A DNA stretch of 31,938 nt, from the UHGV virus genome UHGV-0224535, one strand, 5' to 3'. This stretch comes from a virus. Under the pieces are notes generated by a model. The model was not told where the DNA came from. It saw nothing but the letters and a program-made list of their open reading frames with translations, and searched no databases. Positions within the stretch are counted from its first letter, which is position 1; the number at the start of each line of letters is the position of its first letter. Below are positions 26,425 to 30,873 of the stretch, one piece after another. Made by a program: the position numbers and the translations under genes.

Positions 26425-29400
26425 ATGAGTAGCGGCGGCGGTAAAGCAAAAACACCGACTTTAATTAACGATAATCTATACCATAAACAATTTTATCGTG
26501 TACTTGATATTATTTCGGAAGGTCCGATTTATGGACCTGTAAATACAAAAGCGCCATTAAATAGCGTGATGCTTAATGATACGCCTGTTACAGACGCGAA
26601 CGGCAATACAAGTATCCCGGGTGTTAGCGTGGCGTGGCGTAACGGCACGTTAGATCAATCACCTATTAACGGTTTTAACGCCATTGAGTCAACCGTTATT
26701 GTTAACGCACAGGTTAAACATGACACACCAATAATCAGGACGGTATCAGATCCTAACGTTACGCGCATTCGCCTGAACATCGGCGTCGATTCACTTGTAC
26801 AATCTGACGAGCAAAGCAATCAACATAACACATCGGTTATGATGATGATTGATGTCAAGCCTTCATCTTCTTCTACGTGGACGCTTGTTAAAGATGTCAC
26901 TATAGGCCCTGGTAAGATCAGCGGAGAATATCTTGAAGCGCATATTATCAATGCACCAGATGAAAAGCCGTTTGATATTCGCGTTCGCCGTGTCACCGCT
27001 GATAGCACAAGCGATCTGTTGCAGAATGATACGCGATGGAGTAGCTACAGCGAAATAATCGACGATAATTTGTCATATCCACACACCGCTGTAGCTGGCG
27101 CGGTTATTGATCATGATCAGTACACTGATACACCTACCCGCACTTATCACCTTCGCGGGCTGATTGTTGATGTGCCGGACAACTATAACCCGGAAAAACG
27201 CACTTATTCAGGTTTGTGGCTTGGCGGCTTCAAGCAGGCATACACCAATAACCCAGCGTGGATCTTCCGTTACCTGGTTAAAAACGAGCGTTTCGGTCTT
27301 GCCCGCCATGCTGGCTATATTGACGTTGACGACGGCGCATTATATACGCTTTCTCAATACTGCGATCAGCTGGTCGATGATGGTTATGGCGGCCTTGAGC
27401 CTCGCATGACGCTTAATGCTTACATTACTGAGCAGATGAGCGCCCGCGACTTACTGGACAATATCGCCGGGATGTTCCGAGGCATCGCGTTATGGGACGG
27501 GCAACGCCTCACAGTGATGATTGATGCACCACAAGACCCGATCGCAACCATTACAAACGCAAACGTCGTTGATGGCGCGTTTACTCGTTCAAGTATCTCC
27601 CGTGCGGAATGCTACAACGCCGTGATCGTATCATGGACTGACCCGGAAAACGGATGGGAACAATCAAAAGAGTATGTGGCAAATGATGAGCTAATCGCCC
27701 GTGATGGTTATAACGAAACCACGTTGGAGGCTTTCGGGTGCACCTCACGCGGGCAAGCGCACCGCGCGGGTAAATGGCTGATAGAAACAGCAAAACGCGA
27801 GCCGTCAAAATTCACGTTTAAAATGGCGCGTGACGCAATTCACTTTACGCCAGGGGATATAATCGAGATCCTCGACAATAACCGCGCTGGCGCTCGCTTA
27901 GGCGGTCGCATCGTGGCGAACAATGGTAAAGTGATAACGGTAGATAAGGTCGATTCAGAATATATTGCGGCTGGCGACACTATAAGTCTTCTTGATAGCG
28001 ATGGAAAATTTAAAAAACATCAGATCACTGGTGTTAACGGGAACAAAATCACACTGGCAGCGGCCCCGGCATGGATTCGGAACGGGACTGTTTTTGCTGT
28101 ATCAACCGAAGCAGCAAAACCCGTTTTATGCAGGATCACCAGCGTAGCCGAAACTGAAAACAACAGCGTGTACACCATCGAGGCCGCGCAGCACGACCCG
28201 AACAAACAAGCGGTAGTCGATGAAGGCGCAATATTTGAAATCAACAACGACACGCTTAATCATTTCCGTGTTCCGAACATAGAAAACCTGAAAGTAATAA
28301 ACATTGCGTCAGAGACTGTTCAATGCCGCGCTACATGGGAAACACAGACAACTACGCATCGCATGACCTTCGAGATCCGCATATACAATGCAGATGGTGC
28401 GGTGGTTAAAAGTTATGAAACCACGAAATATAGTTATGATTTTTATGGCATAGACGCTGGCGCGTATTCGTTAGGCGTTCGCGGAAGAAATGACACTGGC
28501 ATGAAGGGTGCAGAAAGCATAGTAGATCTTGTTATTGGTGCACCAGCAGCCCCGATTGGCGTTAATTGGGTTCCTGGTGTATTCCAGGCAACAGTGTATC
28601 CGATCAGCAGAACAACGCTTACCACTGATACCAGTTACGAGTTTTATTACTCAGGTGAAACACAGATCACCGACCCGGCATCAGTAACCACTAAGGCACA
28701 ATATACCGGGCGTGGTCATCAGTGGACTTTTGGCGGCATGAACACGGGGCACACCTATTACGTTTATGTGCGCACGCGTAATGCCTTTGGTGTGTCAGAC
28801 TTCGTTGAGGCGTCAGGTAAGCCAACTGAAAACTTCGATGAAATCAGCGACTACGTCACCAAAGACGTGATGAACTCAGAGCAATTTAAGGAATTGGTAA
28901 GTGATATTAAGGATCTTGGTGATCGCACTGATATTATAGAAAGCGCAACCGCCGACCTTAAAACAGCTACAGACGGCCTTAAAGCTGATACAGATACACT
29001 TAAAAAAGACACCGAAGACCTTTATAAAAAAGTCGAAGAAAACGCCGATGGAATAGGCAAACATGAGGTAAGAATAGACTCATTAGAGGTATCAAACGAA
29101 AACGTTAATAACGAACTGGCACAGACAAAAGCAAGTCTACAAAACGCTTCGCTAGCTCTGATCAACAACTCACTTGCTCAAACTAACACGCGCGTTACTC
29201 TTACCGCTCAATATAAGAAAGGGCGCAACGAAACGAAAGCGCAGATTGACCGCATAGACAACGTTATCGCAGATGAGAAAAAAGCGACAGCGGAATCACT
29301 GGAAACCATTACAGCAGAAATGAACGCAATGGACTCCAGCATCAAAGGGGAAATCGCCCGCGTTGACAAAGCAATCGCAACCGAAACGCAGGCAAGAAGC

Positions 29401-30873
29401 GACGCAATAACAGAGGTTAAAGCTGATTTAACCACGCTTGAAAATAGCACAAACGCCAGTGTTAGACGCCTTGATCAAGCTATCGCTGACGAATCAAGCG
29501 CGCGCGCCCAGGCAATATCAGGCATCAGTGCGGAGCTTGGTCTTGTTGAAAGTGATGTTGATAAAAACAGCGACAAGATAGAACAGGCGAAAGCAAGTCT
29601 GCAAAACGCCTCGATTGCACTTATCAACAACTCAATAGCGCAAAGCAAGATGGGCACTGTTATTGAGGCGAAATACAGGAAAGGCCAGACAAAAACAAAA
29701 GCGGAAATAGCAAGGATCGACACAGCAATAGCAGACGAAACACATGCCCGCGCGGAGGCTATAGCATCACTTGAAGCCAATATTAATGAAAACATTTCAG
29801 CAAAAATAACAGATATATCAACGGCGCTCGCAACTCACGAGGCATCAAGTGCTGAAAAATTTGTTCAAATATCGGCATCTTTCGACGATGTAAACTCAAG
29901 CATCACGGAATGGTCGCAGGCCATGTCAACGGCAGATGAGGCGTTATCGACAAAAATTGATCAACTGAAAGTGACCGTTAACGGAAACACAACAGCGATC
30001 GAGACAACATCGAAAGCGTTAACCGATTTTAAAGGTAACGTTGATGCGTCATATTCAATCAAGATTGCCACTGATAACAACGGTATGAAATACGCAACAG
30101 GAATGTCACTTGGCCTAACTGGCAGCGGTACTGATGTTCAATCGCAGTGCATTTTCCTTGTTGACCGATTCGTGTTAATGACTGCCGCAAACGGCACATA
30201 TCAGACACCTTTCTATGTCACTAACGGCGCAATGTATGTGCGCGAAGCGTTTATTAAAGACGGTTCAATCGACAATGCAAAAATAGGCAATGTCATAACG
30301 TCATACAATTGGAACGGTAGCGATCAAGGTTGGGCAATAGTTAAAGATGGCTGGGCTACATTTAACAACGTTACAGTACGCGGCACGGTATACGCTAATT
30401 CTGGTGTGTTTAACGGTACTGTTTACGCGACTGACGGTAAATTCAGAGGCACTGTAGAAGCTACATCCTTTGTTGGTGACGTTGCGAGTATGTCAGTAAT
30501 TCCAGAGGCAACATTCCCTGCGCAATCAGGGTCAGGTAGCAGGAGTGTAACCAAAAATTATTGGGATTCATCATCATCTGCTTTATCGAAAACGGTTTAT
30601 GTAATGATACCTTATAACCTTGCTTACTATACATATAACCAGTCGGGACGCATTAACGTAACCATAAACATTAACGGAAATTCAAAGACTATAGACATAG
30701 AAAGGGCGGCATCAACGCCCCACAAGTCAGACGTTGCCGTTCATTGTGTTTCAGGTATTACATCTCAGCATGTTTCCGTAACTGTTACAGAAAACTACAC
30801 AAATACATCATCAGCAGCAATAAGGAGACCAGGCCTAGTCCTTGTCACAAGAAGCTCAGGATCGTGGTCATAA
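26425..30873 (+). CDS. tail tip / host specificity protein, lambda gpJ-like, with extended repeat-containing C-terminal region
   Basis: 1482 aa; position after the M/L/K/I-like genes; AGGAG RBS; C-terminal third carries repeated I-D-x-A-I-A-D-E-x-x-A-R motifs and a terminal beta-rich domain. Confidence 0.9.
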   Translation: MSSGGGKAKTPTLINDNLYHKQFYRVLDIISEGPIYGPVNTKAPLNSVMLNDTPVTDANGNTSIPGVSVAWRNGTLDQSPINGFNAIESTVIVNAQVKHDTPIIRTVSDPNVTRIRLNIGVDSLVQSDEQSNQHNTSVMMMIDVKPSSSSTWTLVKDVTIGPGKISGEYLEAHIINAPDEKPFDIRVRRVTADSTSDLLQNDTRWSSYSEIIDDNLSYPHTAVAGAVIDHDQYTDTPTRTYHLRGLIVDVPDNYNPEKRTYSGLWLGGFKQAYTNNPAWIFRYLVKNERFGLARHAGYIDVDDGALYTLSQYCDQLVDDGYGGLEPRMTLNAYITEQMSARDLLDNIAGMFRGIALWDGQRLTVMIDAPQDPIATITNANVVDGAFTRSSISRAECYNAVIVSWTDPENGWEQSKEYVANDELIARDGYNETTLEAFGCTSRGQAHRAGKWLIETAKREPSKFTFKMARDAIHFTPGDIIEILDNNRAGARLGGRIVANNGKVITVDKVDSEYIAAGDTISLLDSDGKFKKHQITGVNGNKITLAAAPAWIRNGTVFAVSTEAAKPVLCRITSVAETENNSVYTIEAAQHDPNKQAVVDEGAIFEINNDTLNHFRVPNIENLKVINIASETVQCRATWETQTTTHRMTFEIRIYNADGAVVKSYETTKYSYDFYGIDAGAYSLGVRGRNDTGMKGAESIVDLVIGAPAAPIGVNWVPGVFQATVYPISRTTLTTDTSYEFYYSGETQITDPASVTTKAQYTGRGHQWTFGGMNTGHTYYVYVRTRNAFGVSDFVEASGKPTENFDEISDYVTKDVMNSEQFKELVSDIKDLGDRTDIIESATADLKTATDGLKADTDTLKKDTEDLYKKVEENADGIGKHEVRIDSLEVSNENVNNELAQTKASLQNASLALINNSLAQTNTRVTLTAQYKKGRNETKAQIDRIDNVIADEKKATAESLETITAEMNAMDSSIKGEIARVDKAIATETQARSDAITEVKADLTTLENSTNASVRRLDQAIADESSARAQAISGISAELGLVESDVDKNSDKIEQAKASLQNASIALINNSIAQSKMGTVIEAKYRKGQTKTKAEIARIDTAIADETHARAEAIASLEANINENISAKITDISTALATHEASSAEKFVQISASFDDVNSSITEWSQAMSTADEALSTKIDQLKVTVNGNTTAIETTSKALTDFKGNVDASYSIKIATDNNGMKYATGMSLGLTGSGTDVQSQCIFLVDRFVLMTAANGTYQTPFYVTNGAMYVREAFIKDGSIDNAKIGNVITSYNWNGSDQGWAIVKDGWATFNNVTVRGTVYANSGVFNGTVYATDGKFRGTVEATSFVGDVASMSVIPEATFPAQSGSGSRSVTKNYWDSSSSALSKTVYVMIPYNLAYYTYNQSGRINVTININGNSKTIDIERAASTPHKSDVAVHCVSGITSQHVSVTVTENYTNTSSAAIRRPGLVLVTRSSGSWS
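29128..29800 (+). repeat. internal tandem duplication within gpJ-like (two diverged ~70-aa units starting at 29128 and 29590, 462 nt apart, in frame)
   Basis: AQTKASLQNASLALINNSLAQTNTRVTLTAQYKKGRNETKAQIDRIDNVIADE versus EQAKASLQNASIALINNSIAQSKMGTVIEAKYRKGQTKTKAEIARIDTAIADE; the DNA is also recognisably similar. Confidence 0.7.

Follow-up and report, generated by a model that had tools for sequence, protein, structure and literature searches.

What does a long, repeat-bearing region contribute to the C-terminal part of a phage tail protein related to lambda J? The question is raised by the J gene of the virus genome UHGV-0224535, which lies at 26425..30873 on the + strand of the stretch analyzed here (31,938 nucleotides (nt), hereafter the window) and encodes a central tail fiber or tip attachment protein of 1482 amino acids (aa). 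An earlier reading of the sequence alone, here called the sequence-only reading, had noticed an internal duplication and a repeated motif in this protein and had taken them to mark the receptor-binding region and to indicate host-range evolution. According to our analysis, the repeats are predicted to form an alpha-helical shaft upstream of the domain that probably binds the receptor. We consider it fairly likely that this shaft is length-tunable and metastable and that it refolds after receptor binding, a fold switch that is posited by analogy with the central fiber of the F7 pyocin.

Identity of the J protein

Five Pfam domains were found in the window J protein, all five exceeding their gathering scores, namely FNIII-A_GpJ (aa 88-214), Phage-tail_3 (335-492), Ig_J (609-707), Ig_J_second (709-811) and Phage_Tail_Tip (1191-1328, E 8.9e-38). 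Together with lambda J (PDB 8iyk), which matched with E 3.9e-191 over aa 1-851, they bear out the earlier description of the protein as gpJ-like. It is also, as had been noted, longer than lambda J (1482 vs 1132 aa; the length of lambda J had been given as roughly 1130 aa). The two proteins align in two blocks, aa 1-851 (lambda 1-858) and aa 1186-1370 (lambda 839-1011), and the extra length is therefore a single insertion of ~335 aa where lambda has a short linker. The NCBIfam model NF049904 (lambda_TipJ) scored 764 bits with a cut-off of 1950, and was matched at model positions 1-1002 only. On sequence grounds we classify the window protein as a homolog of the lambda J type and not as the equivalent of lambda J, from which it differs in its shaft and its receptor-binding domain. 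J follows the tail-tip genes L, K and I, as expected of a lambda-type J, in that the homologs of the three open reading frames (ORFs) upstream (24499..25203, 25206..25937 and 25880..26410) are annotated in mEp013, mEp010 and mEp044 as assembly protein L, tail assembly protein and tail assembly protein I. NCBI has an identical J protein (P0009) on record for E. coli.

The nearest named relatives were compared by megablast, which returned ~85% nucleotide identity to mEp010, mEp044, mEp021 and MagusPhagus over 61-86% of window positions 1-25000. The J gene of the mEpimmI phages and MagusPhagus is 82-87% identical to that of the window over the first ~3.8 kb, and J proteins of mEpimmI phages (mEp021, mEp010, mEp013, mEp044, mEp515 and mEp554) and of MagusPhagus carry the same leader and 36-aa units, described below, in the same position. 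These comparisons place the window in the mEpimmI coliphage group, with a J protein of the mEpimmI type.

Between the last Ig domain and the beta-prism, at aa 812-1190, no curated Pfam domain was found. Matches of the shaft to Pfam, PHROGs and NCBIfam entries (SMC, Apolipoprotein, DUF1664) were weak, coiled-coil-type noise and were rejected as homology. Two further entries, PF28217.1 and PF27241.1, are precomputed for long-shaft alleles only (e.g., P0041, P0042, P0045); local Pfam searches gave no match to them.

Duplication and repeat structure of the shaft

The two units that had been placed at 29128 and 29590, 154 codons apart, start precisely there, at codons 902 and 1056, and both open with KASLQNAS[L/I]ALINNS[L/I]AQ...KKG...ID.[AV]IADE. 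Self-alignment, the test on which the duplication had been said to depend, returned a significant internal repeat, with a score of 222 for the local alignment of the protein halves vs 54.5 +/- 9.1 (maximum 90) in 300 shuffles. BLASTP between the two segments gave 78 bits and E 1e-23 at 39% identity over 125 aa, while BLASTP of the undivided protein against itself showed no off-diagonal match; the signal appeared after the protein had been split. The two units share 59% of residues in their first 39 aa and 53% when 70 aa are compared. The duplication as such is thus firm, although its supposed length of ~70 aa is too short, since the alignment over 125 aa spans most of a 154-aa super-unit.

Each of the two super-units consists of a 39-aa leader (U) followed by 36-aa repeats, which occupy aa 941-976 (degenerate), 977-1012, 1013-1048 and 1095-1130. 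The repeated motif I-D-x-A-I-A-D-E-x-x-A-R recognized by the sequence-only reading is the most conserved part of this repeat and is present in four copies, IDNVIADEKKAT from aa 944 (degenerate), VDKAIATETQAR from aa 980, LDQAIADESSAR from aa 1016 and IDTAIADETHAR from aa 1098. At the DNA level the repeat copies look old, with nucleotide identities of 63-70% and third-position identities of 43-56%. Tandem Repeats Finder and a direct-repeat search detected no 108-nt or super-unit repeat in the window J gene, only heptad repeats spaced by 21 nt, and the duplication is therefore visible at the protein level only. Two antisense ORFs on the - strand, 29208..29450 (80 aa) and 29475..29795 (106 aa), were treated as by-products of the Ala/Ser/Ile-rich repeat codons and found no support as genes.

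The shaft, encoded throughout on the + strand, can be divided as follows. It begins with a head (aa 812-901; 28858..29127), a helical segment of the canonical heptad type whose 7-aa LKxxTDx repeats are encoded by the 21-nt-spaced direct repeats at 28958-29006. The leader of super-unit 1, U1 (aa 902-940; 29128..29244), matches the U profile with 86 bits and is modeled with low confidence. It is followed by array 1 (29245..29568), whose three repeats R1-R3 (aa 941-976, 977-1012 and 1013-1048) match the repeat profile, and by a 7-aa spacer, SDKIEQA (aa 1049-1055; 29569..29589), which completes the 154 aa of super-unit 1. U2 (aa 1056-1094; 29590..29706), the leader of super-unit 2, matches the U profile with 78 bits, and the modeled helix breaks within it at aa 1067-1080. 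Array 2 is the single repeat R4 (aa 1095-1130; 29707..29814), identified by the repeat profile, where relatives have up to five repeats. The shaft ends in a degenerate, repeat-derived segment (aa 1131-1185; 29815..29979), predicted to be helical to aa 1179, which BLASTP aligns to R2-R3 of super-unit 1 and which is conserved in the family, with many invariant columns in the alignment of relatives. Beyond it lie the beta-prism of the central straight fiber (aa 1191-1328; 29995..30408), identified as Phage_Tail_Tip and aligned to lambda J 839-1011, and a C-terminal beta-sandwich (aa ~1346-1482; 30460..30870), the probable receptor-binding domain.

Predicted structure and periodicity

The part of J from aa 795 to 1482 was modeled as a monomer with AlphaFold2 from an alignment of 29 sequences, resulting in a mean predicted local distance difference test score (pLDDT) of 62 and a predicted template modeling score (pTM) of 0.29. 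According to DSSP, the model has helices at aa 802-816, 819-833, 835-885, 897-1066 and 1081-1179. The 36-aa repeats reach a pLDDT of 70-86, and the U units stay below 50. The repeats are thus predicted to be helical and do not resemble a binding domain, contrary to the role first assigned to them. Beta strands begin at aa 1182, and a confident beta-sandwich is modeled at aa ~1346-1482 (pLDDT 80-95); with the Phage_Tail_Tip match, the strands agree with the distinct terminal beta-rich domain noted earlier. The best matches of the model in the PDB, as found with Foldseek, are the gpJ central tail fiber structures 9wca, 8xcj and 8xck.

For the strongly hydrophobic residues of aa 812-1190, Fourier analysis gave a peak at 3.58 residues with a power of 4.54, compared with 0.72 +/- 0.21 (maximum 1.40) in shuffles, and no such peak was seen in the Ig and fiber domains of the window J. 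The period is 3.51 in the head and 3.60 in array 1. Among 194 distinct 36-mers of relatives, hydrophobic or conserved core positions are 1, 4, 8, 12, 15, 19, 22, 26, 29 and 33. Their spacings (3-4-4-3-4-3-4-3-4-4) correspond to a hendecad, two heptads and a hendecad (11+7+7+11), and ten core positions per 36 residues result in a period of 3.6. The modeled helix and a hydrophobic periodicity of 3.5-3.67 residues are what is expected of a coiled-coil shaft. Chou-Fasman prediction and composition did not discriminate among the head, the body of the shaft (aa 902-1185) and the tape measure protein. As lambda gpJ is a trimer (PMC11101478), we infer a parallel trimeric bundle, with a left-handed twist expected for the head and almost no supercoiling for the body. 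Given a rise of 0.148 nm per residue, its ~378 helical residues would span ~56 nm.

A fold-switch motif in the shaft

In lambda, the shaft of gpJ is a three-helix bundle of residues 809-861 that clamps the FNIII-2 trimer; upon LamB binding it flips and turns partly into beta sheet, so that the FNIII domains are set free and the tube opens (PMC11101478). A more extensive change is reported in a 2026 preprint for the J-type central fiber of the F7 pyocin, where a trimeric coiled coil of 163 residues converts into a beta-prism, a conversion required for killing, and a non-switching 'spine' (residues 818-921) precedes the switching segment (PMC12874032). The prism strands of F7 are marked by the motif SxSxxMxxLxS. 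Its small 'S' residues lie on the surface of the coil but become buried at the prism corners, and its acidic 'M' residues have an Arg partner four positions off (PMC12874032). The same study predicts a switch for 21 of 24 siphophage central fiber proteins, and its predicted equivalents include those of HK639 and mEp390 (PMC12874032).

The body of the window shaft contains 17 matches to this degenerate motif, compared with 4.4 +/- 2.0 (maximum 11) in shuffles that keep composition only. In the head, a single match was found, no more than in shuffles (0.71 +/- 0.85), and the enrichment is absent from the beta-prism fiber, the receptor-binding domain and the tape measure protein of the window; the lambda shaft and beta-prism have no matches. 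Each 36-mer carries one reverse and one forward motif, which alternate at a spacing of 36 residues (reverse at aa 939, 975 and 1011; forward at aa 954, 990 and 1026), and the counts in relatives rise with repeat number, from 18 to 43. Conservation within the 194 units reaches 99-100% for small residues at positions 7, 9, 14, 16 and 24 and for hydrophobic residues at 1, 4, 19 and 22. E11 is invariant and R15 is conserved at 89%, forming a pair at i, i+4. The body is flanked by the motif-poor head on its N-terminal side and by the beta-prism domain, from aa ~1186, on its C-terminal side.

The window shaft takes the same place as that of lambda gpJ (8iyk, 8xci, 8xck), between FNIII-2 and the beta-prism, but is ~380 aa long, built of repeats and bears SxSxxMxxLxS, whereas the lambda shaft comprises 53 aa. 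With the F7 fiber it shares the J-type architecture, in which a long coiled coil, predicted in the case of the window, leads from the FNIII domains to a beta-prism seed, and the head at aa 812-901 may be comparable to the F7 spine. In both proteins the motif occurs in both orientations and an acidic residue is accompanied by an Arg four residues away. They differ in that the switching segment of F7 has 163 aa, while the corresponding segment would have ~284 aa in the window and up to ~700 aa in relatives, with a regular 36-residue repeat. The switch itself is reported for F7 and is assigned to the window family by analogy. The F2 pyocin fiber (25vf) matches the whole window J, with its best stretch at aa 4-690, and is absent from the shaft-only search.

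Only one solved chain is similar to the shaft, a J-like 'putative tail fiber protein' of 1172 aa (PDB 9l9p chain S; E 1.5e-09), the N-terminal part of which is likewise J-like. It shares the run K-x-x-A-E-x-x-x-x-x-x-IADETQAR-x-x-AI-x-x-L-x-A and has REVIATETEAL repeats. Its residues 852-1020 form related repeats, REVIATETEALSREIDQLKAQIGDDIQASLTDI, with an IA[DT]ET.A motif and a period, counted in the alignment, of 33 residues (three hendecads), compared with 36 in the window.

Length variation among relatives

About 125 J proteins of mEpimmI coliphages and prophages were dissected by means of a U-unit profile and a 36-mer profile. J measures 1478 aa in MagusPhagus, 1504 in mEp013, 1707 in mEp010, 1727 in mEp021 and 1828 in mEp044, and homologs from prophages and metagenomes range from 1350 to 1935 aa. 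This variation is quantized in three modules. The head, counted from the end of FNIII to U1, has 102, 109, 116, 123, 130, 144 or 158 aa, i.e., it varies in steps of 7 aa. The distance from U1 to U2 is 154+36n aa with n = 0, 1, 2, 4, 5, 6 or 9, apart from one variant of 183, and that from U2 to the beta-prism is 154+36n aa with n = 0-4. The two arrays vary in length independently of each other (rho 0.23). In the window J all three modules are of the smallest size seen (102, 154 and 154 aa), giving four repeats and a linker of 410 aa, while up to 12 repeats are found in named phages and 14 in prophages. All but two of the dissected proteins have two U units, and the duplication is therefore ancestral to the family.

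Among proteins 97% identical to the window J, the sole differences are an exact 36-aa unit at aa 986 and, at aa 840, ATADLKT heptads that are likewise exact and number one or two, which indicates that gain and loss of units is recent and clean. In the long alleles the 108-nt repeats match at only ~77%, which points to recombination between diverged units and not to slippage. A search of aa 897-1180 against 1.84 billion cluster representatives with HMMER found only 62 proteins at E <= 0.001. When the seven best distant matches were scanned with Pfam, three contained Phage_Tail_Tip (P0130, P0134 and P0136) and four had no Pfam match. A word-based homolog search with the shaft only yielded eight partial proteins, its candidates being saturated by low-complexity words.

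Head length was also seen to rise with summed array length (Spearman 0.86 over 22 architectures), by ~5 head residues per 36-mer, with correlations of 0.87 for the adjacent array 1 and 0.36 for array 2. Such a relation would be in keeping with a spine required to span the prism, although it may be linkage.

Variable repeats in J were already known from the mEpimmI phages, and so were a coiled-coil shaft and a possible switch from lambda and the F7 pyocin. The mEpimmI paper states that the J proteins differ in size and that their C-terminal region 'contains repeats of different length (positions 950-1,475)'; in the parts consulted, the quantization by 36 and 7 residues, the periodicity and a structural role are not described (PMC11893012). 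New in our analysis are the nested anatomy of U units, 36-mers and heptads, the exact 36- and 7-residue quantization of three independent modules, the 11+7+7+11 register, the decoupling of the shaft from the type of receptor-binding domain, and the occurrence of the fold-switch motif once per orientation per unit.

Receptor binding and alternative explanations

Could the repeats themselves belong to the receptor-binding region, so that their duplication reflects host-range evolution? They do lie in the C-terminal half of a host-specificity protein and in a segment that differs between relatives, and the mEpimmI paper places the 'repeats of different length' within the variable C-terminal region (PMC11893012). 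The predicted helix is, however, no binding domain, and the repeats are upstream of both the beta-prism and the terminal beta-sandwich, which match the fiber and receptor-binding domain of lambda; the beta-sandwich is the probable counterpart of the latter. When domain types were defined by clustering the last 150 aa at >=70% identity, the type found in the window occurred with 19 linker lengths (410-862 aa), and the shortest linker of 410 aa occurred with at least six types. Repeat number therefore does not track receptor specificity. The same is seen in mEp013, mEp010 and mEp044, all of which use LamB (PMC11893012) and which differ greatly in repeat number (J of 1504, 1707 and 1828 aa). DNA similarity to mEp013 and MagusPhagus ends near nt 3845 of the gene (~aa 1282). 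The last 153 aa are 66% identical to J of MagusPhagus, the closest relative in this part, and ~50% to J of Seurat/CAjan-like phages, and are unlike the LamB-type termini of mEp010, mEp013 and mEp044 or the OmpA-type terminus of mEp021. Taken together, the decoupling of length and type, the shared use of LamB and the end of similarity near aa 1282 locate host-range mosaicism in the terminal domain and not in the repeats. Comparison of the J C-termini, as had been suggested, thus bore out a repeat region that differs among relatives, but one that does not follow receptor type. A receptor-binding role of the repeats is accordingly highly improbable in our view, and repeats in J should not be taken as receptor-binding determinants in annotation.

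A helical shaft need not refold, and it might be a rigid trimeric coiled-coil stalk that sets fiber length only. Such a spacer might, for instance, extend the receptor-binding domain past O-antigen or capsule as far as outer-membrane proteins. The signal of receptor binding would then pass along the fiber as a twist, or simple bending would take its place. It would be in line with the predicted helix, the 3.6-residue periodicity and a quantized length polymorphism that is independent of domain type, as well as with the statement that lambda and T5 do without an extensive switch (PMC12874032). A simple coiled coil, however, does not need the small non-core residues at positions 7, 9, 14, 16, 18 and 24, which are near-invariant in the 194 units, nor would it call for an enriched fold-switch motif that alternates regularly in orientation. 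The short shaft of lambda also refolds on receptor binding (PMC11101478), and a fiber of 56 to >120 nm must shorten or bend for the tube to reach the membrane. We therefore regard a purely static stalk as somewhat unlikely. A role confined to the U units, as non-coiled-coil interruptions that serve as hinges or as docking sites for side tail fibers, with the duplication providing two of them, seems improbable. The modeled helix is interrupted at aa 886-896 and 1067-1080, pLDDT falls below 50 over the U units, two of which are kept in nearly all relatives, a side-fiber-like gene begins near 31327, and short non-coiled-coil stretches are said to be potential docking points ('may be SFP attachment sites'; PMC12874032). 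Yet U1 is modeled as helical and retains the ~3.6 hydrophobic spacing and the motif pair, the low pLDDT may stem from gappy alignment columns, and the side fibers of Ur-lambda attach at the gpV/gpM collar and not at J.

We favor the metastable, refolding shaft because small residues outside the core are near-invariant, as a second, beta-prism conformation requires. Several points weigh against it. The absence of an extensive switch in lambda and T5 comes from the very preprint that describes the fold switch (PMC12874032). SxSxxMxxLxS is degenerate, and part of its enrichment over composition-only shuffles may reflect an Ala/Ile-rich repeat with a ~3.6 period. No sequence similarity of the shaft to solved pyocin fibers was detectable in a search up to E 10. 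The AlphaFold2 model is monomeric, with a mean pLDDT of 62, a pTM of 0.29 and U units below pLDDT 50. The correlation of head and body length is carried by the adjacent array and may for this reason be linkage. Finally, a central fiber of 56 nm (>120 nm in the longest alleles) is unreported for these phages, the mEpimmI paper, in the parts consulted, mentioning ~130 nm tails only (PMC11893012).

Proposed mechanism

We posit that the U-led super-units and the heptad head would form a helical shaft of ~380 aa, presumably a trimeric coiled coil, that joins the FNIII-2/Ig domain of J to the beta-prism fiber and the receptor-binding domain. The head could gain or lose whole heptads, and the arrays whole 36-residue units, without breaking the helical register, and the length of the shaft (~56 nm of helix in the window) would set the reach of the receptor-binding domain. 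After receptor binding, refolding may draw the tail tip up to the membrane and cause it to open, with each 36-mer supplying one reverse and one forward SxSxxMxxLxS strand motif to the refolded form.

More tentatively, the 36-residue unit might be the 'quantum' of a fold-switching spring, and the allelic series of 4-14 units might tune reach and stored energy independently of receptor choice; we see this as possible but rather doubtful. The unit would then be a stable stretch of two heptads and two hendecads in a three-helix bundle that lacks supercoiling, and on refolding it would become one hairpin layer of a beta-prism; heptad steps in the spine segment would be matched to the number of units. 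The stored energy would serve tail opening and the breach of the outer membrane. The family bears on how non-contractile tails signal receptor binding and on where the energy for opening and penetration comes from. Near-identical J proteins that share one type of receptor-binding domain on shafts of 410-862 residues offer a ready test of reach vs stored energy.

Neighboring features of the window

Directly downstream of J, at 30904-31152 on the - strand, lies a gene for an 82-aa lipoprotein (MKNMLKVVLFAAAVALTGC...), as in the mEpimmI phages and MagusPhagus. It had no NCBIfam match. In the mEpimmI phages, Lpp superinfection-exclusion lipoproteins occupy that position (PMC11893012). It is followed on the + strand by an ORF (MIYTTGTIAVSGKTVTGTGTEF...; ~31327-31938) that runs past the end of the window and takes the position of a 'tail fiber protein' in mEp010 and MagusPhagus, presumably a side fiber. 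On the other side of J, mEp021 has an extra gene between I and J that encodes a putative HNH endonuclease (locus sequence 937-1503); no HNH endonuclease gene was found at the I/J junction of the window, where J begins 15 bases after I.

At the start of the window, positions 1-142 are 99.3% identical to the insC (IS2-type) transposase gene in Salmonella phage SJ46 and other records. Phage-like sequence follows immediately, which suggests an insertion sequence element abutting or inserted in a prophage. Short repeats occur elsewhere in the window: a 21-nt unit is repeated 2.7 times in tandem at 13444-13500, within the ORF 12401..13705, and (GCG)x12.7 is found at 20948-20985, within the 779-aa ORF 19043..21382 that presumably encodes the tape measure protein.

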